From: a virus
Reading direction: 5' to 3' (one strand)
Length of the DNA: 36,008 bases
Virus genome (UHGV): UHGV-0138922
Part shown: positions 1 through 33,805 of the stretch, piece after piece
How the letters are laid out: each line of letters opens with the position of its first letter
Numbering within the stretch: the first letter of the stretch is position 1
Position numbers and translations under genes: made by a program
The notes under the pieces: generated by a model
Database searches by the model: none
Seen by the model: the letters and a program-made list of their open reading frames with translations, nothing else
What the model was told of the DNA's origin: nothing

Positions 1-26
1 CGACAGAGGATAGAAAACTCGTTCAT
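1..26 (-). CDS. ycdY: 5' end of host YcdY-like gene, partial (continues beyond window start)
   Basis: Minus-strand ATG at 24-26 reads MNEFSILCR...; host-like GC content; sits directly downstream of the YcdX-like stop codon. Confidence 0.45.
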
Positions 27-49
27 TAATATATTTCCATTACTAGTAA

Positions 50-391
50 TTAAAGGTCTGCAAATTCCGCAATCGGTGCCATACCGCGAGATTCAAGGAA
101 GTTCAGTAAGCGGCGCGGAGAAACATTCAAAATGCGCTCTGGCGGAAAATCTACCGCGTCGAGGATTTTAAGACACTCTTCAAATTCACCCATGGTAAAC
201 GCGGTGTGAGAATCCGAGCCTAATGCCACCCAACCTCCAGCGTCACGTACCGCTGCGGCTACCGCACGACAATTGTCTTCACTTCCCTTACGTGAGTGTA
301 AAAAAGAGGAATTATTGATTTCCAGCGCCACCTGATGTTTCGCGGCTGCTTCAGCAACGGCTTTAACATCTATTTCATATTTCGGATTGCC
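50..391 (-). pseudogene. ycdX: 3' fragment of PHP-family phosphoesterase gene (YcdX-like), truncated at the prophage junction
   Basis: ORF-track protein from [29 protein letters not shown] through the GSDSH motif to ...PIAEFADL looks like the C-terminal ~115 aa of a PHP-domain protein; the upstream 55 codons of the 170-aa ORF are AT-rich and antisense to gene 431-700; GC content drops sharply near 392. Confidence 0.6.
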
Positions 392-430
392 TAATATCAT
401 GTACCCACAATAACACGAGAGGATACAACG

Positions 431-700
431 ATGAACATTACCAAAGCAATCCATAACTATGCTCGCCGCCGTGGAATCGAACTTCAACTCGAAGATGAGC
501 AGGTTAGATTCTGGGAGACTGAACAAGATTGTGAATGGATGTTCAGCTATTCGATTGCTCAATGTGGTTGCTTGTTCTGGAAAGGTAATGTGTATCTTCC
601 CCGCGATATTAAAGAAGAACTTCCGGCGATGATTGGCACCGATAAGAAGTTAAAGGAAGTCTTAGATTTTATCCACAAAGAGTTTATTAGCAAGAAGTAA
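431..700 (+). CDS. Hypothetical 89-aa Cys-containing protein at prophage end
   Basis: ORF with GAGAGGA ribosome-binding site about 8 nt upstream of ATG 431; followed by a hairpin terminator. Confidence 0.55.
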
Positions 701-710
701 TTTCTAATTT

Positions 711-736
711 GGTGGGTGCAATTCCCACCGCTTTTT
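711..736 (+). terminator. Rho-independent terminator
   Basis: GGTGGG-tgcaatt-CCCACC stem-loop followed by GCTTTTT. Confidence 0.6.
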
Positions 737-753
737 AAACTGGAGAATCAAAC

Positions 754-834
754 ATGTTAGCTTTTATCTCATTCGTGGGAGGTAGTCTCACAACTATGAT
801 TAGTCTTTCTTATCTTGTTGTTAGTATGGGGTGA
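754..834 (+). CDS. Candidate 26-aa hydrophobic micro-peptide (MLAFISFVGGSLTTMISLSYLVVSMG)
   Basis: ATG preceded by GGAG; its TGA stop lies within the ribosome-binding site of the next micro-ORF (possible coupling); not in the ORF track (<60 aa). Confidence 0.3.
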   Translation: MLAFISFVGGSLTTMISLSYLVVSMG

Positions 835-838
835 TCAA

Positions 839-964
839 ATGAAACAATTTCATGATGGCATTTCATCTAAGACATTCAAGAAAGAATATAGCGGATTGTG
901 TATTAACTGGATTGATTTGATTGGTGCGGTTGTGTTTGGTCTGGTAATCAGCATCAACTTTTAA
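839..964 (+). CDS. Candidate 41-aa membrane peptide (MKQFHDGISSKTFKKEYSGLCINWIDLIGAVVFGLVISINF)
   Basis: GGGGTGA ribosome-binding site 5-6 nt upstream of ATG; C-terminal hydrophobic helix; not in the ORF track. Confidence 0.4.
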   Translation: MKQFHDGISSKTFKKEYSGLCINWIDLIGAVVFGLVISINF

Positions 965-1005
965 CGATATAAATATATCGTAATTCATTCAAAGAGGATT
1001 CAATT

Positions 1006-1347
1006 ATGAAAAAGACTATCTACGCAATTATTGTTTCTGTGTGTGTTGGTGGCATCGGTGGATTTGTTTGTGGGTATGACTATTCCGATACTCAACATCA
1101 AGAGACTATCCGGTCAACTAAGGCTGAGATTAAGGATCTGAATCAGGAGATTAGCCAGTTAGAAAATGCTCTCTCACTCAAAGATAGTGAATATAGCGAG
1201 GTTTATGCAGAGAAACAAAAATATTGGAAAGAGAAAGATAATCTCGTCGTTTACGGGATGAAATTGTGTAAGAGCATGAAGGATGAGCGCAGTTGCTTAA
1301 TGGAACTTGCCCTTAAAGGTAACGTGACCATCGACTTCAAAGACTAA
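1006..1347 (+). CDS. Membrane-anchored coiled-coil protein (113 aa), accessory (moron-type) gene
   Basis: N-terminal hydrophobic segment then heptad-like region; AGAGGA ribosome-binding site; 5' region nearly identical to that of the next gene. Confidence 0.6.
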   Translation: MKKTIYAIIVSVCVGGIGGFVCGYDYSDTQHQETIRSTKAEIKDLNQEISQLENALSLKDSEYSEVYAEKQKYWKEKDNLVVYGMKLCKSMKDERSCLMELALKGNVTIDFKD

Positions 1348-1378
1348 TTAAATTCTAATAACAAGAGGAAATTCAATT

Positions 1379-1624
1379 ATGAAAAAGATTATCGCTGGTA
1401 TCGTTCTTTCTTTAGGTCTGGTTGGTGCTGCCACTGCCGATCAATATGTACAGGGTGATAGTGTTAAACGTGCAGCCGTTGTTACTTCCCTGAATCAATT
1501 GTGTAGTGAAATAGCTGTACTGGCTGGTCAACCTAATGATGAAGAACTTATTACCGCGTGTATCTGGAGTCATGTAGAGGATATTAATATTCGTGATGCT
1601 CGACTGAAAGGTAAAAAATACTAA
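1379..1624 (+). CDS. Small secreted protein (81 aa) with signal peptide
   Basis: MKKIIAGIVLSLGLVGAATA-DQ looks like a signal peptide with AxA cleavage motif; AGAGGAAA ribosome-binding site; terminator follows. Confidence 0.6.
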   Translation: MKKIIAGIVLSLGLVGAATADQYVQGDSVKRAAVVTSLNQLCSEIAVLAGQPNDEELITACIWSHVEDINIRDARLKGKKY

Positions 1625-1628
1625 TGAC

Positions 1629-1657
1629 TTACTAACCAATGCCCCTATCGTTATAAT
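1629..1657 (+). promoter_or_regulatory. Candidate integrase promoter (TTACTA-N17-TATAAT) embedded in the terminator
   Basis: -10 TATAAT lies in the loop of the 1641-1670 hairpin, 33 nt upstream of the integrase ATG. Confidence 0.3.
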
Positions 1658-1677
1658 ACGCGGTAGGGGCTTTTTTG
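1641..1677 (+). terminator. Rho-independent terminator
   Basis: GCCCCTA...TAGGGGC stem followed by TTTTTTGTTT. Confidence 0.6.
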
Positions 1678-1689
1678 TTTGGAAATGGT

Positions 1690-3369
1690 ATGAAAACTAA
1701 ACTGTATTCGTATATTCGCTTCTCGTCTATGCGTCAGAATGATGGTTCGAGTTATGAACGACAAATCAGGATGGCTAGAGAGATTGCGGCAAAGTATGAC
1801 CTTGAACTGGTAAATGATTATCAGGATCTGGGTGTATCTGCGTTTAAGGGTGCTAACTCTAAAACAGGGGCGCTATCTCGTTTCCTTGATGCAATTGGTA
1901 GATCCGTTCCTGTTGGTAGCTGGCTATTCATCGAAAACTTGGACCGTTTATCCCGTGCCGATATTGTCAGTGCGCAGGAGTTATTCCTTTCAATCATCCG
2001 TAGGGGAATAACCATTGTTACTGGCATGGATAACAAGATCTACTCGCTGGATACTGTTACCGCTAATCCGATGGACCTGATGTTCTCCATCCTTTTATTC
2101 ATCCGTGGTAATGAGGAAAGCCAGACTAAGCGCAATCGTACTAACTCAAGCGCACTGATTAAGATTAAAGCCCATCAAGAAAATCCCCAGAATCCGGCAG
2201 TGGCAATCGAGGAAGTTGGAAAGAATATGTGGTGGACGGATACCACTTCCGGTTATGTGCTGCCTCATCCGGTGTACTTCCCTGTTGTTCAGGAGATTGT
2301 GGAATTACGGAAGAATGGACGTTCAACCGCCGAAATACTGGATCACCTTAACGAGACTTATACACCGCCACCAGCGGTTAGCAACAAGAAGCATTCAAAA
2401 TGGTCACGGGCAATGGTTGAAAGGTTGTTTCATACCCGCGCTTTGATTGGTATCAAGGAGGTCTCTGTAGATGGCGTTAACTATGAGTTAAAGGATTATT
2501 ACCCTCGTGTTATTGATGACCCTACGTTCTATCACCTTAAGAAAAATATTGGTGCTAGAGCATGGAACTTCGGAGACAAGGAAGAAGTTAAACCGATCCC
2601 CCTGCTTAGTGGTATTGGCCTATTGAAATGTGATCATTGCGGTTGCGCTATGGTTAAAGTGAAGGGAACGAACAAACGTTCTGACCAGTATCGTTATACA
2701 TGTGATGCGACCCGTTCACGTAGACTTGATTGCGAGCATCCAAACTGGAGTTTTCGAGGTGATCAATTAGAGAAAGCTGTATTGCAATTGCTGGCTGATA
2801 AAATCTGGATTGCTGAGGACAAGGCTAATCCGGTTCCGGCGTTGAAAGTACAGGTTGATGAAATATCACGCAAGATTGATAACCTGATTGCCCTTTCTGC
2901 TATGACAGGAGCAACGAAGGAGCTAGCCGATCAGATTACTACCCTCAATAGCGAGCGTGAAACACTCTACAATCAGATCAAGATGGCAGAAGAGGAAATG
3001 TATTCTGTTGACTCTCAAGGCTGGGAGAAGCTCGCAGAATTTGATTTAGAAGATGTTTACAACGAGGAACGACTAAAGGTCCGGTTTAAGATTAAGCAAG
3101 CTCTAAAGCGGATCGGGTGTAGCAGGATTGACAGAAACAAAAACTTGTTTGTACTGGAATACATCGATGGAAAGACCCAGAGAGTTGTAATAGAAAATTC
3201 AAGAGGAACGAGGAAAGGACAAATCTTTGTCGATTTGAAAACTATCAATGATAGGCAGATTCTGGAGAGTAACGGGCTTGTTCTGCATCCATGTTTAGAC
3301 ATGCTGACAGATAAGAACTGGAAACCAGAAGAGGAAATACCAGGTCCATTACAGGAATTTGGAATTTAA
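1690..3369 (+). CDS. Large serine recombinase (phage integrase)
   Basis: N-terminal resolvase-type catalytic motif YSYIRFSSMRQ; long recombinase domain; Cys-rich zinc-ribbon (CDHCGC...YRYTCD...C) and C-terminal coiled coil; ATG 1690 is the likely start (track start 1675 is TTG). Confidence 0.88.
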   Translation: MKTKLYSYIRFSSMRQNDGSSYERQIRMAREIAAKYDLELVNDYQDLGVSAFKGANSKTGALSRFLDAIGRSVPVGSWLFIENLDRLSRADIVSAQELFLSIIRRGITIVTGMDNKIYSLDTVTANPMDLMFSILLFIRGNEESQTKRNRTNSSALIKIKAHQENPQNPAVAIEEVGKNMWWTDTTSGYVLPHPVYFPVVQEIVELRKNGRSTAEILDHLNETYTPPPAVSNKKHSKWSRAMVERLFHTRALIGIKEVSVDGVNYELKDYYPRVIDDPTFYHLKKNIGARAWNFGDKEEVKPIPLLSGIGLLKCDHCGCAMVKVKGTNKRSDQYRYTCDATRSRRLDCEHPNWSFRGDQLEKAVLQLLADKIWIAEDKANPVPALKVQVDEISRKIDNLIALSAMTGATKELADQITTLNSERETLYNQIKMAEEEMYSVDSQGWEKLAEFDLEDVYNEERLKVRFKIKQALKRIGCSRIDRNKNLFVLEYIDGKTQRVVIENSRGTRKGQIFVDLKTINDRQILESNGLVLHPCLDMLTDKNWKPEEEIPGPLQEFGI

Positions 3370-3405
3370 GCGGCCTAAATCGACGTATAACGAGCTAAAA
3401 CAGTT

Positions 3406-3432
3406 AAGGGGTACTTCGTACCCCTTTTTAAT
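3406..3432. terminator. Bidirectional hairpin terminator between convergent genes
   Basis: AAGGGGTAC-ttcg-GTACCCCTT palindrome flanked by A-run and T-run. Confidence 0.6.
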
Positions 3433-3441
3433 TTAATTGCG

Positions 3442-4617
3442 TTAGAGAGCCTCTAAGAGAGTATTAAAGTATTCATCCATTAAATCAGGACTGTCGTCAT
3501 CAATACAGAAAAATTCCGGTTTATTGATGCCGTAGAAGTGAGTATGTAGCTTGAATGTATCGTCATCAAATACATCTTTCGGGGATACCCACATATTAGC
3601 CTCGTCCGGTTGATTGGTTAGGTAGTCATAAACCAGTTGCTGTAAGTGTGGTAACTCATCAATAGTCAGAGTTTCCGACCATCCATCCTTGAAATCTTTG
3701 TAGGGTGCTGCATGAGTCTTGAAGCGTTGTTTTACTTCATGCTCTAAATCAACGGCTTTCCAACCATCCTCAAACTCATGAGTAAAGATTAATCTGTGAG
3801 TGAAGTTGCTCTTTCTGGTTTGCTCTCTCATTCGTTCTTCTGGTTTCCGGGTAGTGATTCCAAATTTAATAAATTTGTCATCTAATAATTGAATGTAGAA
3901 ACTAGCCTTACCCTGATAAGTCCGGTTAGACAGTTGCACCAGTTGGTCTTTAATGCAAAGCGGACAAGTGAAAGAATCAGCACATCTTAAATGAGATTCC
4001 CATTCGTGGTTATGTGTCTTGCAATAGGTTTTAAATTTAACATCCTTTAGGTGTGGGGTGTTTATGATGAATCCTTTGAAGGTGTAAGGCGTACTCTCGC
4101 AACGTGCATTGATGATTGTCTCTTTGTCCTTAATAACTTCATCAAAAGTCTTGCCACTTCTTACCCGTTGGGATTTTTCAGCCATACAGATTTTGCAATC
4201 AAAATCGAAATCATCTTTGAGTGCATGTAATAGAGATGGCGTCATGATTTGATTGTGTTCAGGGCACAAAACACGGGCTTTCGTTCTATTTCGCCCTTTC
4301 CATTCTCCTTGCCATCCGAGGAATTTCTTTCCCTTCTCATTACAACGAGATTCCATTTTCAACCATACAGCCTTTTCAGTCTGGAATAACTCACCCCCGT
4401 TAGTATCTTCCAGTTTGCGTAATTTGTAGTCCTTATATTCTTGTGTATCTAAATTGTAGATTCGAAAGTAAGTGTGATTACCCTTCCACGGTAGGATAAA
4501 TCCACCAAATACGAAAGCAGGTTCCAGTTTAGCGATGATTCGTTGTTGGTACTCTTCCGGCGATAAACCGCGAGTTTTCTTAACAAAAGGAATTTCGGCA
4601 GCGTAAGCAAGTTTCAT
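3442..4617 (-). CDS. Zn-ribbon + GIY-YIG (T5orf172-like) nuclease-domain protein, 391 aa
   Basis: GIY-YIG-like motifs SFYIQ...KFGITTR...E; several CxxC pairs; start moved to the internal ATG at 4617, which has an AGAGGAAA ribosome-binding site (track start 4728 lacks one). Confidence 0.6.
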   Translation of the reverse strand: MKLAYAAEIPFVKKTRGLSPEEYQQRIIAKLEPAFVFGGFILPWKGNHTYFRIYNLDTQEYKDYKLRKLEDTNGGELFQTEKAVWLKMESRCNEKGKKFLGWQGEWKGRNRTKARVLCPEHNQIMTPSLLHALKDDFDFDCKICMAEKSQRVRSGKTFDEVIKDKETIINARCESTPYTFKGFIINTPHLKDVKFKTYCKTHNHEWESHLRCADSFTCPLCIKDQLVQLSNRTYQGKASFYIQLLDDKFIKFGITTRKPEERMREQTRKSNFTHRLIFTHEFEDGWKAVDLEHEVKQRFKTHAAPYKDFKDGWSETLTIDELPHLQQLVYDYLTNQPDEANMWVSPKDVFDDDTFKLHTHFYGINKPEFFCIDDDSPDLMDEYFNTLLEAL

Positions 4618-4676
4618 AGTAGTTTCCTCTAAAATAATAAGCTCACTACTATTTATTAGAGAAAATTGTCTTACTA

Positions 4677-4704
4677 TTGCATTCTCTATCTGAATGTGTA
4701 TAAT
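4677..4704 (+). promoter_or_regulatory. Sigma70-like promoter (TTGCAT-N16-TATAAT)
   Basis: Hexamers read directly from sequence, about 65 nt upstream of gene 4772. Confidence 0.45.
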
Positions 4705-4771
4705 ACGCGACCCTAAATCCCAAACCAACCATATTGAGGTTATGCCTATAAGTTAAAAAAGTGAGGTCTAT

Positions 4772-5341
4772 ATGATTCCAGTAATGGCTAAAGATATTGT
4801 TTTTACTCCTAAATCCTCCCGTGCTGTAACTCCATCGGCATTAGAACAACGCATTCTGACTCACATCAAAGAGAAGGACTTACCGTTAGTCTTTCATGGC
4901 TTTCTGGGTGAGTTTAAAGGGCTTCATTCAAGAATTGCTCTTACATGTACCCGATGCGGCAATAGAGCCGACAAATCAGCTACCAACCTGCTTAATGAAG
5001 GTAAACGCTGTGCATGTCTCAAAAGTGATTACTTTCAATATAAAGCGGGTGTGCCTTATCTCTATGTAATGAAATCAGGGGATATTGGTAAATTTGGTGT
5101 TACAAAGTCAATCATCAAGCGACGCATTAATCTGGGTGTACGCAATCCCGGTCATAACTTTGATATTGTCTTTGCTGGTGAAATGCCATCAATGAAACAT
5201 GCTTTAGCCACTGAAAGAGCAATAAAGAGATTACTGGATGTGGGTATAGGCGGGATTGAATACGGCAAAACTGAAACATTCCACTACTGCAATAAATCAC
5301 TAAACAATATAAAGAATATTGCAAGTGTGGAGTGGAACTAA
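4772..5341 (+). CDS. Zn-ribbon + GIY-YIG nuclease-like protein (189 aa), paralog of 3442-4617
   Basis: CxxC...CxC then PYLYVMKSGDIGKFGVTKS...R...E (GIY-YIG spacing); collinear similarity to the 391-aa protein. Confidence 0.65.
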   Translation: MIPVMAKDIVFTPKSSRAVTPSALEQRILTHIKEKDLPLVFHGFLGEFKGLHSRIALTCTRCGNRADKSATNLLNEGKRCACLKSDYFQYKAGVPYLYVMKSGDIGKFGVTKSIIKRRINLGVRNPGHNFDIVFAGEMPSMKHALATERAIKRLLDVGIGGIEYGKTETFHYCNKSLNNIKNIASVEWN

Positions 5342-6836: not shown

Positions 6837-6854
6837 AGGGGCTTTAATGCCCCT
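6837..6854 (+). terminator. Hairpin (AGGGGC-tttaat-GCCCCT), weak terminator or attenuator
   Basis: Stem-loop immediately after the helicase stop, followed by a T-rich tract. Confidence 0.35.
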
Positions 6855-6876
6855 TTATTCTACGGAGATTAAAAAA

Positions 6877-7128
6877 ATGATTAGCTTTAAACGTTTTTTG
6901 GTTGAGGCCGCGATCGACGGTTTCATGAGTAAGATTTATTCTTGTAATACTATCGAGGGATTAAATGAACTTGAGGCATATTATGAGAAGCGCAAGAAAG
7001 AAACAGAATTGAAACCTGCTGATGATATTTCGATCCGTGATGCCATCGCCGGACGACGCAAGCAACTGGAAGCGGAGAACGAGCCGGAAGACGATTTTTC
7101 TATCATCAATTTGTGCCAGATAAAATAA
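6877..7128 (+). CDS. Small acidic protein (83 aa)
   Basis: GGAG about 10 nt upstream of ATG 6877 (track start 6847 lacks a ribosome-binding site); followed by a strong terminator. Confidence 0.5.
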   Translation: MISFKRFLVEAAIDGFMSKIYSCNTIEGLNELEAYYEKRKKETELKPADDISIRDAIAGRRKQLEAENEPEDDFSIINLCQIK

Positions 7129-7173: not shown

Positions 7174-7527
7174 TCAGCCATTCCATCGAGATTTTTTCGA
7201 CCTGCTATCAATATGCGTAAAGGTTTTATATTTGCCTAAGCCGTATTGAGTAGGATATTTCCCATCAAGATAAGCATGGACAATATCAGGGGAGACACCC
7301 TTGATCACAATGTCAGCCGCACGGCCTCGAACGTGATAGCTGTTGGTTGCACCGCCTACATTCTTGTTATGAGTCGGACAACGGTTCCCACTGTTAATAA
7401 TTACTGGTTTCCCGAAGTGCTCTCGTACATCCTCAAGAATTACCAGTAATTCAGCGTCGATTGTATCATAATCACATTTTCCGCATTTACATTTAAATTC
7501 CTTGCGAGAAAAATGTTTGCTTAACAT
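7174..7527 (-). CDS. Peptidase M15-family (zinc D,D/L,D-peptidase), candidate endolysin
   Basis: SRKEF...CKCGKC...NSGNRCP...SYHVRGRAADI...HID motif pattern typical of Peptidase_M15_3; GGGGGT ribosome-binding site. Confidence 0.7.
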   Translation of the reverse strand: MLSKHFSRKEFKCKCGKCDYDTIDAELLVILEDVREHFGKPVIINSGNRCPTHNKNVGGATNSYHVRGRAADIVIKGVSPDIVHAYLDGKYPTQYGLGKYKTFTHIDSRSKKSRWNG

Positions 7528-22762: not shown

Positions 22763-23185
22763 TTAAAAACGCGCTAGATAAGAAAATTTAAGACTAAGTG
22801 TCCCAACGATACCCCCATCACTAGAATCATCGTCATAATCGGTATTAGAAGCGACTGGAGTTATATCTGAAATGGAGAAGCCCAAATCTTTAAAACGTGG
22901 GTTATCTGGCTGAATCTGGATTATCTGGCAAATACCCTCATGAATTTTCGTTTCATGAATCTGAGAATATAATTGCATTTCGATAACGCATTCAGCTTGC
23001 ATTGCATTACCACCACGGACCCTAGTGTAAGTCTCATTCATTCCGGTAATCCAACACACCACGTCATCGCTAAAACCAGTTTGAGTTTGTTCTACGTTTA
23101 AAGCCAGACCTAGATCTTGTTCGATAATATCCTGTAAAGCACGTTTAATCTTAAGACGTGGCATATTATTAACGGTAGCGAGCAT
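22763..23185 (-). CDS. Head-tail joining / neck protein (putative)
   Basis: Position between capsid and tail genes; AGGGGGTG ribosome-binding site supports the internal ATG near 23185. Confidence 0.4.
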   Translation of the reverse strand: MLATVNNMPRLKIKRALQDIIEQDLGLALNVEQTQTGFSDDVVCWITGMNETYTRVRGGNAMQAECVIEMQLYSQIHETKIHEGICQIIQIQPDNPRFKDLGFSISDITPVASNTDYDDDSSDGGIVGTLSLKFSYLARF

Positions 23186-27747: not shown

Positions 27748-29655
27748 TTAGAACGATGTTACCCAGCTACGGCCTCTATTTGGGCGTCTGGCGATGTTTT
27801 GACGTTGTGGTCGTGTGATTGGCTTAGTTTCTTCGATTTGCTCGTCAGATTGCGTTTTAGGAGCTTCTACGGATTCTTCGACAACACGGTTTAAGCTGTC
27901 TTTCATTGCAATGAGTTTATCCCATGACATTTTTGAAAGAACGTAGCGAGAAGCAGCATAGCTATAAACCAGACAGTCGAGAGCCTCGTTTCGGGTACTA
28001 CCTGGATTTTTCACCCAACGAACACCAGTAGTAGTACGCTTGATGGATTCACTCAAAAGCTGATCGAGATAATCATCAGGAACGGTTTCTGATATTTCTA
28101 GGCCGATATGAGGATTGTCTTTCAGGTTTCTAACCAGCATTTCACGAACAGCGGATTTACCAACGTTAACACCCAACATAAGCAATTCATGACCACCTGT
28201 GCGGGTAGGTTTAACCGGAATCACTGGAGCATTACCAGATGAACTACCTTTGATAGCGTGTAGGTTCTTCCACTTACCGCAAATACGGTATCCGGCTTGA
28301 GTGAATCGACCGTTTGATGTATCGAGGAAGCTGGCGAGCATTGGTACACGTTCACCATTAACGTTATAGAATTTGGTTTTCTTGAAGTTAACCAGGCGAT
28401 CCCATACAGGTGATTCATATCGTTCACAGTTATGATCGTAAAAGCTGCGGTGATCCAGAATGTAAACCTTATCTTTCGCTACACCTAAGATGGTAGATTC
28501 TGCGCGATCCAATTGCTGGTCAATTCCTGAGCACAAGAAAATTACGTCATCAGGGATATTCTCGATAGAAACATCTGTTTTGAGTTGTTCCAGTTCATTG
28601 GCTTCTACGGCAGTGTCCTGATCATCGTATACCTTACCTAACACGGTGTTATAAAATGATTGTAAATCAAAGGATTGCCACGCATGACTAAAATCAACCA
28701 CACAAGCGCGAATCGTGCTAAAAGGTGAATACAGACGACTGATCCAGAATCCTGCTACTTCACTTTCACGGGTTGCTCTCCACTCGCCTTGCGCTACTGC
28801 CCTGATTCGTTCCCCTTCGGTCCATGCGTTCTTACAGTGGGGGCAAATATAACGAGCGGTATCAGGATCAGGTAAGTTCTTACCATCAATGTTACGCCAT
28901 TCAAATTGAACGTTTTCCCACTCGATCACCTGGTGTTCCCCGCAATGCGGACACGGAACAAAAAACATACGCATGTCGCTTGATAACCATTGCTGGTTAA
29001 TGCTTCCGAGCTTACTGGTCGGGGTACTGGATACGACTAATCGACCTTCATCCCCAAAGGTAGTTAAACGGTTAGCAGCCAGTGCCACCGGATCACCTTC
29101 TTCTGAGGCTGTGGCAGCATCGATTTCGTCAAGTAATCCAACCTTTGCGGTCTTACCACGTAGGGTTGATGGACTGGTAAGCGATACCATGTACAGGAAG
29201 TGATTCGTTTTTAGCTGTAGCTGGTTATTGTTGTTAACCGCATTGCGATCATTCTTGTCTGTAACCACGTCTTTTAATGCATCACATGCTTCGATAGACG
29301 GTCGGATCTTACCAGCGAGATATTGAGACATTTCTTTAGCGGTTGATTGTCCGATAATCATATTGCATGGATCGTTAGCCATCTGGTTAAACAGGATACC
29401 GTTTAGGATGGTAGTTTTTCCGATCTGCGCACTGGTCATCAGAACATACTTTTTCTTGTTCTCAAGGAAAGGAGCATCAATCATGCCTTTCTGGAATGAC
29501 AGCAATTTAACTTTATCCCCAGCTTGAGGACCATCTACCAGCACCATATTCGCTTCGCACCATTCCGATGGAAGGAGTTTAGGCGGTGGCGTAATATATT
29601 TTGCGGCATTTCTAAGAATTCTTTTTAGTTTTGTTTTGTTCGAAATTAGTTTCAT
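27748..29655 (-). CDS. Terminase large subunit (lambda gpA family)
   Basis: Walker A-like TSAQIGKTT, conserved CPHCG zinc-ribbon motif, 635 aa; GAGGGT ribosome-binding site. Confidence 0.88.
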
Positions 29656-32530: not shown

Positions 32531-32570
32531 AGTTGGTAATCCTCTAAAAGAAAGTGAATCAAACAAATTA

Positions 32571-32846
32571 CACTAGTATTTATAACGAGAATTTTTTATC
32601 TATTTGGAAGTGATTGGTATTCAGTCTGGCTAAAGCCATCCTTCATGTACTAGAACAAGAATTATACAAAACAAATTTTCTTCTATAATAATATTATATA
32701 ATAGTTCTTCGTTTTGATTAAATGATCATCAAACCAGTATTGACGCTCTCCAGAGCGTCTGCGAAGCAATCTATTACCTTCTAGTATTATCAAAGTGATT
32801 CCAACTACCTTTCTAGTAACCAGTTAGTAATCATCTAGTATTAAAT
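32571..32846. promoter_or_regulatory. Cluster of five CTAG-containing sites ([A/T]CTAGTA[A/T]), candidate operators
   Basis: ACTAGTAT 32571, TACTAGAA ~32650, TCTAGTATTA 32781, TCTAGTAAC 32812, TCTAGTATTA 32835; the first overlaps a candidate -10 for gene 32530. Confidence 0.4.
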
Positions 32847-32869
32847 CCCTTTCTAAGAAAATCCTTTCA

Positions 32870-33000
32870 AAAGTGAGTGAACGCCGTAGGCGTGAACGTG
32901 AGCGAAGCGAACTATCCAATCCCTTTCGAATCCTGCTTGCAGGTCTTAGAAGGTGTTGGTGGGCGCTACGCGCACGGCTACGCCGTATTCTTTTTGTGAG
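32870..33000. other. GC-rich hairpin-dense non-coding element (possible small RNA or recombination/packaging site)
   Basis: ACGCCGTAGGCGT, GCGCTACGCGC and ACGGCTACGCCGT hairpins; direct repeats GTGAGCGAAGCGAAC / GTGAGAGAAAGCGAAC; local GC far above surroundings. Confidence 0.35.
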
Positions 33001-33118
33001 ATCTTTCTTGAACGCTAGTGAGAGAAAGCGAACAAAAAGGAGAACGTTAGTTCGAGTTTTATATTCTATGGTCTGTGTGGTCAAATGCTTTTGCAAATCA
33101 TACACTTACGTGATTGAA

Positions 33119-33240
33119 GTGTAGGGTTAGTGTAGGTGTGTAGGTTTCATAGTGTAGGTTTGGACATGTTCTAGTGTAGGTTTACTGGCTAGTGTAGTGT
33201 AGGCCAATCCCTTTCATGTGTAGGTTTGTAGTGTAGGTTT
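33119..33240 (+). repeat. Iteron array: 8 direct copies of GTGTAGG(TTT)
   Basis: Copies start at 33119, 33130, 33138, 33152, 33174, 33197, 33218, 33231. Confidence 0.8.
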
Positions 33241-33330
33241 TTCATCAAAAATTTTGATAAAAAATTCTTGTATATTATTTAACCAAAAAATCATCAAAAA
33301 TCGCTGTAAGTTAATGATTTAAAAGGAATT
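33241..33330. promoter_or_regulatory. AT-rich tract with ATCAAAAATTTTGAT palindrome and repeated ATCAAAAAT half-sites
   Basis: Perfect 15-bp palindrome at 33244-33258; half-site copies near 33292 and 33395. Confidence 0.55.
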
Positions 33331-33354
33331 GTCAAAAGGTCACCGTGCTATAAT
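33326..33354 (+). promoter_or_regulatory. Promoter with extended -10 (TGcTATAAT)
   Basis: TG at 33346-47, TATAAT at 33349-54; weak -35 GAATTG/TTGTCA. Confidence 0.55.
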
Positions 33355-33434
33355 AGGTTATAAAGGTTGATAATCCTGATCAGCCGTTTTCACACAAAAA
33401 TTTTGATAGTCATTTCTCGCCTAGATCATGGGTA

Positions 33435-33463
33435 TTGACAATAGTCAAGAACTATTTTATACT
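33435..33463 (+). promoter_or_regulatory. Sigma70 promoter (TTGACA-N17-TATACT)
   Basis: Hexamers read directly; about 340 nt leader to gene 33806. Confidence 0.6.
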
Positions 33464-33805
33464 TTTTCTCACTGGTGGGGGTTGAAATTTTCAAAACAAT
33501 CCCCATATAGATGATAGGCAAGAATTTCTCTTGTATAAATACATGCATGAAAATGATTGTTCACTTCTGAAATCTCCAGATTCACTGTTAATTCATACAG
33601 CACTGGTTAGATATACAGTGCTTTTTCGGTTGAATAATGTACGAATTGATTAATTATTAATCTTCTCTTTAGCAATTCGTGCTCCCACTGATCGGATATA
33701 CAGTAGTTTTACAGGGTTTTTCGAAAATCATTTTATAAATAGATATGTCGAGAGCGAAAAGCTCTTTTTAAAGTTTTCATTATTCCACAATTGAGGATTC
33801 TACTT

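Follow-up and report, generated by a model that had tools for sequence, protein, structure and literature searches.

A small accessory gene cluster between attachment site and integrase of an Escherichia coli ycdX prophage: constant micro-proteins and exchangeable cargo

What do small genes lodged between the attachment site and the integrase of a temperate phage contribute, and in which state of the phage genome are they expressed? This question is raised by positions 431 to 1,624 of the virus genome UHGV-0138922, a stretch of 36,008 nucleotides (nt), hereafter the window, which represents the left 36 kb of an approximately 37-kb siphovirus-type prophage integrated in the Escherichia coli gene ycdX. 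A preliminary description had placed five + strand open reading frames (ORFs; 431-700, 754-834, 839-964, 1006-1347 and 1379-1624) between the host/prophage junction (390-391) and the integrase gene (1690-3369), and their positions and surroundings as well as the physical description of the small proteins by hydropathy, heptads and signal-peptide features could be confirmed. The five genes, all under purifying selection with a ratio of nonsynonymous to synonymous substitution (dN/dS) of 0.08-0.43, constitute a real prophage accessory cluster of new protein families, with a GC content of 35-39% compared to 43-46% for the integrase gene int and 38-41% for other neighbours. Swappable, dispensable cargo next to an integrase is the usual mark of lysogenic-conversion or exclusion genes, and the conversion or exclusion role initially proposed is retained in part: orf113 and orf81 are indeed dispensable, swappable cargo beside the integrase, whereas orf89 is not lysogeny-specific and a promoter active in the prophage state is doubtful. 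Among the readings weighed below, an accessory envelope-directed module that combines a constant micro-protein pair with a swappable exported partner, and most likely would exclude phages at the periplasm or inner membrane, is tentatively favoured. The assignment of the cluster to membrane and secreted proteins holds for four of the five products, which are predicted to be membrane-located or exported, and not for the soluble orf89. The cluster runs from orf89 over a weak hairpin, the micro-ORFs m1 and m2, an invariant linker and the cargo slot to a strong terminator and the integrase, with the following features (aa, amino acids; z, z-score).

431-700, + strand: orf89, soluble cytoplasmic alpha-beta4-alpha protein of PHROG 6147, assigned by profile match and structure model
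710-736, + strand: weak hairpin (710-730) with T-run between orf89 and m1, about -9.5 kcal/mol, z -1
754-834, + strand: m1, predicted 26-aa uncharged single-helix membrane peptide with GGAG 8 nt upstream of the ATG
839-964, + strand: m2, predicted 41-aa tail-anchored membrane peptide starting 4 nt past the m1 stop
965-1005, + strand: invariant linker (about 45 nt) with the palindrome CGATATA-AA-TATATCG (965-980) and the ribosome-binding site of the first cargo gene
998-1052 and 1371-1425, + strand: cassette-junction repeat of 55 nt, 73% identity, with a 17-nt exact core
1006-1347, + strand: orf113, predicted bitopic inner-membrane protein of 113 aa with N-terminal anchor, predicted periplasmic coiled coil and C-terminal knob
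1379-1624, + strand: orf81, predicted Sec-exported periplasmic protein of 81 aa with signal-peptide features
1641-1680, + strand: strong intrinsic terminator (hairpin 1641-1670) closing the cluster, -23 kcal/mol, z -4.5, conserved in all relatives

Constant micro-proteins and exchangeable cargo

The comparison draws on viral and metagenome contigs, in which a 20-nt piece of the invariant linker detected about 40 loci of related prophages, and on the diverged lineages L007 and L008, obtained by protein look-ups. The constant core in every relative consists of m1, m2 and the linker, with both micro-ORFs present and open in all of the approximately 40 loci. The m1 peptide has zero charged residues (grand average of hydropathy, GRAVY, 1.62), and in three lineages with saturated synonymous divergence its frame is open at 25-27 codons, with hydrophobicity kept and the motif Y-[ILF]-V-V preserved; variable columns distribute over the three codon positions as 20/12/23, the second position being least variable. 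By this pattern of sequence change, m1 probably is a gene. The m2 peptide, basic at the N-terminus and with a hydrophobic helix at the C-terminus (Kyte-Doolittle score KD15 2.51, top 3% of the small ORFs of the window), is represented by 17 distinct nucleotide versions with 8/5/23 variable columns per codon position, a 3-nt in-frame indel and a pN/pS of 0.03-0.37; with m2 also called as a gene in L008, the comparison makes it very likely that m2 is one. An alternative-frame ORF of 22 aa within m2 (852-920) is lost in L024 and was discarded as not conserved. RefSeq leaves out both genes in the closest relatives. That the micro-ORFs are unannotated is correct for the 26-aa m1, which occurs in none of the public protein records searched, and not for the 41-aa m2, which is a 'hypothetical protein' in several GenBank records; a search for distant relatives of m2 retrieved nothing outside the same prophage family. 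With two proteins below 45 aa, one of them in no public record searched, the cluster provides an example of routine annotation missing conserved small membrane proteins.

The size and composition of the micro-proteins equally invite a reading as small membrane toxin, of a type I toxin-antitoxin system or as an abortive-infection peptide, whereby de-repressed m1 and/or m2 would depolarise the membrane. The toxins Ibs, ShoB and TisB are in the same size range as m1, which with its 26 aa is uncharged and very hydrophobic, and m2 possesses its C-terminal helix. Such a toxin is nevertheless improbable, as m1 is preceded by a strong Shine-Dalgarno sequence in a sense operon and not by a structured leader, minus-strand promoter-like sites are located at 1055-1027, 693-666 and 535-508 with none over 754-964, no match was found among the Rfam families, which cover known RNAs only, and benign small membrane peptides are common. 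The lack of an antisense promoter over the micro-ORFs and of an Rfam match together with the strong sense Shine-Dalgarno sequence leave the toxin-type peptide considered initially unsupported as a toxin-antitoxin system.

Adjacent to m2, the linker is identical even in L007 and L008 despite diverged flanking coding sequence and precedes every type of cargo. Six states of the slot have been encountered in the approximately 40 relatives, namely orf113 together with orf81 as in this window, orf81 alone, orf113 alone, a 130-aa lipoprotein with an LAGC lipobox, a secreted protein of 137-139 aa with the same signal peptide start as orf81 and, in one case (L017), a 348-aa GIY-YIG/T5orf172 nuclease. 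In five of the six, the encoded proteins are marked by a signal peptide, an anchor or a lipobox, so that, the one exception aside, the slot products are predicted to enter the inner membrane, the periplasm or the outer-membrane lipoprotein pathway. The nearly identical 5' regions of orf113 and orf81 that had been pointed out are real and longer than initially noted, with the repeat spanning the spacer between ribosome-binding site and ATG, the ATG and the first approximately 15 codons of the anchor or signal peptide. The repeat is a cassette-exchange junction and not a regulatory duplication, because the same start heads other cargo and P0036, a protein from a public collection, fuses the orf113 anchor to a domain of the lipoprotein/secreted family. 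As judged from these sequence relationships, the slot is exchanged by recombination at the common ribosome-binding-site/signal-peptide sequence.

The exact palindrome 965-980 of the linker occurs once in the window, and its interpretation as a repeated operator was rejected with one further copy of two mismatches (9085-9100) being compatible with chance. This copy, CGATATTTTTATATAG, is located just upstream of a 92-aa membrane/coiled-coil gene, and two matches were obtained in 2 of 100 shuffles.

Within the cargo, orf113 starts with a hydrophobic helix at residues 5-23 (KD19 2.12) followed by about five clean heptads with I35, I42, I49, L56 and Y63 in the a positions and T38, L45, L52, K59 and V66 in the d positions. 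The coiled coil is fast-evolving (dN/dS of the gene 0.19-0.43); conserved are G15-x3-G19-x3-G23 of the anchor and the C-terminal motif LCKxMKxxRxCLMELA..DFKD, the C-terminal domain harbouring the two invariant cysteines C88 and C97. The family is tiny, comprising 5 clusters in a set of 5.8 billion proteins, to which a set of 1.84 billion representatives adds 3 full-length relatives of greater distance. The second cargo gene orf81, with a dN/dS of 0.08-0.19, has been found only in E. coli, where two allele groups are about 75% identical. Its predicted signal consists of MKK, a hydrophobic core of 15 residues and an ATA/DQ cleavage site of the signal-peptidase-I type (AXA); the mature part of about 60 aa is modelled as a two-helix hairpin with C42 and C61 (AlphaFold2 helices 27-48 and 55-76; predicted local distance difference test, pLDDT, 75-90). 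A fold search with orf81 gave no match, and a match in the PDB to a designed repeat protein was discarded in the absence of an aligned stretch.

The architecture of orf113 raises the possibility of a lysis accessory function, with orf113 as an inner-membrane spanin or m1/m2 as holin-like peptides, which we regard as very improbable. A weak match of orf113 to the Rz-like spanin phrog_739 (E 3.7e-4) agrees with the combination of anchor and coiled coil, and no spanin was found beside the endolysin gene (7174-7527, - strand); equally weak matches to FtsL, DivIC, LapA and the RmuC N-terminus, however, indicate a generic architecture. A lipoprotein partner embedded in, overlapping or adjoining orf113 is missing, and a strict lipobox scan of all frames of the window yielded zero lipoprotein candidates. 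Moreover, orf113 is situated 6 kb from the lysis genes on the opposite strand and is not present in most relatives though their lysis genes are 96-100% identical. Being dispensable among relatives and without lipoprotein partner, orf113 was rejected as a spanin.

The first gene of the cluster, orf89, is of a different kind. Residues 1-84 of its product align to profile positions 1-88 of 91 of PHROG 6147 (E 1.5e-31), thus over the full length of this family without known function, and 420 tblastn matches in phage genomes derive mainly from virulent phages of approximately 150 kb of the phAPEC8 type, where homologues reside amid small early genes. The confident model (pLDDT 93) adopts a generic RWD/UBC-type fold; all viral fold matches are uncharacterised, and weaker similarity exists to small inhibitors from phages or plasmids, namely T7 Gp1.2, PsiB and the C-terminal domain of MotA. 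The gene product is neither an envelope protein nor, because homologues occupy early regions of virulent phages, specific for lysogeny. Its description as a Cys-containing protein is literally correct, with Cys residues that are not conserved among homologues. Among the relatives, two alleles of about 67% identity are found, with or without an extra 128-aa gene; in L008 the order of x128 and orf89 is reversed.

Transcription and the attachment site

Of the terminators thought to enclose the cluster on both sides, the downstream one (1641-1670) is strong, whereas the hairpin at 710-730 is weak and located inside the cluster. The stem of the latter has been kept in L008 via a compensatory T-A to C-G change with the T-run absent there, and it probably acts as a leaky terminator or RNA-stability element. 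The loop of the strong terminator contains a perfect TATAAT (1652-1657), 33 nt ahead of the start codon of int and kept in all relatives, which within TTACTA-17-TATAAT (9.9 bits) may serve as the -10 element of a weak promoter for int that overlaps with the terminator.

How, then, is the cluster transcribed? Classical lysogenic conversion or exclusion genes would be constitutively expressed in the prophage, in this case from a promoter missed by the scans, a reading that differs from the favoured envelope module in timing only. The position of the genes beside int and att in a terminator-bounded layout, the -10 element TATCAT surviving at attL (see below) and an orf113 homologue elsewhere (L057), whose strong promoter of its own would be active in a lysogen, are consistent with such a constitutive expression. 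On the other hand, the + strand of 1-5000 contains zero promoter-like sites that score 9/12 or better, the best internal score by position weight matrix (9.9) is below the mean of shuffled sequences (11.5), no convincing sigma-70-like site precedes m1, orf113 or orf81 in the window, and the interval from the first hairpin to the ribosome-binding site of m1 is too short for a promoter. Constitutive conversion genes are regarded as a rather unlikely alternative.

The best candidate promoter of the region is found upstream of orf89 upon joining of the two halves of the attachment site, the left of which is present in the window.

392-414, + strand: phage-side attP arm TAATATCATGTACCCACAATAAC with a -10-like TATCAT at 395-400

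The candidate promoter across attP was reconstructed by joining the attR-side arm of relatives, GGGGGTTGACTACGTTCGGGTTTCC, which is invariant in five prophages, to the attL arm of the window. The resulting TTGACT-17-TATCAT scores 14.1 bits, the highest value of the region, at an expectation of 0.0013 per 40-nt window, and is in canonical spacing to the Shine-Dalgarno sequence GAGAGGA (417-423) and the ATG of orf89. At attL, the -35 element is replaced by host DNA, whereby the score drops to 5.8-7.2 bits and the -10 element TATCAT remains. In three diverged attP arms that differ in their spacers, TTGAC keeps a constant distance to the crossover, and TATCAT has been kept in the L008 lineage integrating at another attB (ydiJ). 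In KSC64-type relatives, a terminator is located 14 nt upstream of the attP arm, therefore upstream transcription cannot feed orf89. The orf113 homologue L057 is located at the other prophage end, equipped with its own TTGACA-16-TATACT promoter and terminator, and an orf89 homologue in Salmonella equally resides on the attR side; because of these two homologues the accessory region is considered to span attP in the circular genome. We infer that a sigma-70 promoter assembled across attP, with -35 TTGACT on the attR arm and -10 TATCAT (395-400) on the attL arm, would drive the operon. Split by integration, such a promoter would cause expression to peak while the phage genome is circular, upon infection or excision, and to be much reduced in the integrated state, a simple device that would limit accessory-gene expression to the non-integrated phage.

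Expression from the circular genome would also suit a helper of lysogeny establishment, whereby m1/m2 modulate a host membrane factor and the cargo consists of unrelated hitch-hikers. A parallel is provided by lambda CIII, which favours lysogeny by inhibition of the membrane protease FtsH. The invariance of m1/m2 versus the variable cargo, their constant location upstream of int on the same strand and a candidate promoter active only prior to integration point in this direction; against it stand the lack of similarity to CIII or other known regulators and the strong terminator between the cluster and int. A pure analogy, this helper role carries little probability.

The favoured reading as an envelope-directed accessory module is put forward because purifying selection acts on the genes, m1 and m2 are constant, the slot products are exported, the P0036 chimera and the 55-nt repeat document cassette exchange and L057 displays the layout of an independent unit. 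The module would act at the cell envelope, where other phages would be excluded or hindered at a periplasm or inner-membrane step in the manner of T4 Imm and Sp or HK97 gp15, with the swappable cargo as the specificity part of fast turnover. If phage exclusion is indeed the task, new protein families would enlarge the small set of E. coli exclusion mechanisms that operate at the envelope, and cargo swap at a common signal-peptide sequence would be a compact way of diversification. A more far-reaching proposal, in which m1 and m2 represent a new two-peptide inner-membrane module that forms with the exchangeable periplasmic partner a modular anti-phage or entry-control system, switched on in the circular genome and largely off upon integration by the attP-split promoter, is unlikely to be correct as a whole.

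Several observations weigh against the envelope-exclusion reading and its promoter. Searches of Pfam, PHROGs, NCBIfam, PADLOC and PDB sequences and a comparison of folds placed none of the cluster proteins in a family known from exclusion, defence or conversion. The type of cargo does not covary with the receptor-binding C-terminal end of the tail-tip protein, therefore a block of the own receptor in the style of Cor and Llp gains no support. Compared with the best sites of shuffled sequences of 1.3 kb, the hybrid attP score reaches only the 95th percentile, and the conserved TTGAC/TATCAT could, from the sequence, equally be bases bound by the integrase. If the split promoter is true, the genes would be poorly expressed in lysogens, where exclusion matters most.

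From the family libraries Pfam, PHROGs, PADLOC and NCBIfam, the yield was limited to PHROG 6147 in the case of orf89 and, for orf113, to noise of the generic coiled-coil kind, PADLOC reporting for the anchor and coiled coil of orf113 weak matches to RmuC-type models only (E 2e-4). PDB sequence searches delivered nothing meaningful for the cluster proteins, and the literature, searched for prophages in ycdX, for exclusion by small membrane proteins and for coupling of attP to promoters, contained nothing specific.

The prophage and its host junction

The cluster is framed by two genes of known families.

50-391, - strand: 3' part of ycdX (PHP-family phosphatase), cut by the prophage insertion; flank matches in 5411 of 5426 E. 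coli genomes
1690-3369, + strand: large serine integrase with Pfam domains Resolvase, Recombinase and Zn_ribbon_recom; phrog_95 E 5.9e-63

Comparison of attL, attR and the attB of the intact gene, done by hand, places the crossover dinucleotide CC at 390-391 within the codons for HPGNPKY. In relatives, RefSeq labels ycdX a pseudogene without N-terminus, and ycdY, ycdZ and csgG come next after the ycdX flank. The closest complete relative, the prophage of strain PSJ-22 with 94.9% identity, extends over 36.9 kb up to the ycdX 5' part. At least 80% of window positions 1-1700 are carried by 19 of the 5426 complete E. coli genomes and a related right end by 52 of them. Phage DNA extends the ycdX frame on the minus strand (50-562), and translation from an ATG at 398-400 would yield a 116-aa C-terminal YcdX fragment, the equivalent of which is called a pseudogene by RefSeq. 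The L008 lineage, with an integrase of 73% identity and the same m1-m2-orf113 cluster, occupies another host gene, the flank resembling ydiJ (L008 330-460).

The minus strand of the window encodes terminase, portal, a fused protease-capsid protein, tape measure, tail tip, fibres and the M15 endolysin. The prophage family is an uncharacterised E. coli siphovirus-type family: a close sequenced phage isolate was not found, the capsid protein identity being at most 43%, and 50,697 phage records gave no match upon megablast with the cluster DNA and tblastn with orf113 and m2. Equally, viral contigs searched for an intact attP gave no match, and an integrase search in species-representative genomes retrieved a contaminant fragment only.

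A number of further observations concern the rest of the prophage. In addition to the M15 endolysin (7174-7527), the lysis region on the minus strand encodes a membrane protein of 56 aa (8608-8778) and a protein of 92 aa with anchor and coiled coil (8798-9076); a spanin pair is not recognisable. Between helicase and endolysin, a 93-aa ORF (6847-7128) is not present in PSJ-22, where the gap is 32 bp. Just after int, two nuclease genes of the GIY-YIG/T5orf172 type (phrog_681) follow at 3442-4728 (- strand) and 4772-5341 (+ strand), the longer one with CapR domains; together with the third in the L017 slot they look like mobile homing-endonuclease genes. A small terminase gene (phrog_57) is situated beside attP at the far right prophage end (L003 36365-36931, just past the window). 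The gene for the large terminase (27748-29655 of the window) follows about 7 kb downstream of it, separated by genes of the anti-repressor/Rha type and others. A 22-bp unit, TAGTGTAGGTTTGGACATTTCA, is present in 2.5 copies at 33128-33183 within an ORF-poor stretch of 1.2 kb (about 32570-33790) and may represent an origin or operator repeat set. A 91-nt tRNA-Glu called by ARAGORN at 22908-22998 is located within a minus-strand coding region, where Rfam finds no tRNA, and probably is a false positive.

Relation to known systems

Receptor-blocking lipoproteins such as Cor of phi80 and N15 and Llp of T5 have a counterpart in the relatives, where one slot variant is a lipoprotein with an LAGC lipobox. 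The proteins of the window differ by the lack of a lipobox, orf113 having VSVC (V at -1, with homologues devoid of the cysteine) and orf81 ATA/DQ, and by the lack of a membership match in Pfam, PHROG or NCBIfam. With the spanins lambda Rz/Rz1, orf113 has in common an N-terminal anchor and a predicted periplasmic coiled coil and periplasmic cysteines, but is encoded outside the lysis cassette without an outer-membrane lipoprotein partner and is dispensable.

Superinfection-exclusion proteins that act at the periplasm or inner membrane comprise T4 Imm and Sp, HK97 gp15, lactococcal Sie2009 and Ltp of TP-J34. The cluster proteins resemble them in small size and predicted inner-membrane anchor or periplasmic location, and the genes for Sie2009 and Ltp also adjoin an integrase; unlike for these proteins, expression of the cluster in the lysogen is doubtful, and sequence or fold similarity is not detectable.

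Morons are reportedly insertions of promoter, gene and terminator in lambdoid phages, with HK97 gp15 and lambda bor and lom as examples. Variable presence of orf113 and orf81 at the same position, bounded by a terminator, as genes for predicted envelope proteins at a prophage edge recalls these elements, and the L057 homologue of orf113 possesses the full layout of promoter, gene and terminator. In contrast to morons, the cargo in the window is without its own promoter and placed behind the constant, not variable m1/m2 pair, the cassettes swap at a common ribosome-binding-site/signal-peptide sequence and the cluster is without sequence similarity to gp15, Bor and Lom.

In temperate phages with integration-dependent control, attP is located in or beside a regulatory element, as in the integration-dependent immunity of mycobacteriophages. 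Here, integration would uncouple the operon in a comparable way, with attP separating the -35 from the -10 element of the best promoter candidate; in place of a truncated repressor gene, the control element would, as read from sequence only, be the split promoter of an accessory operon.

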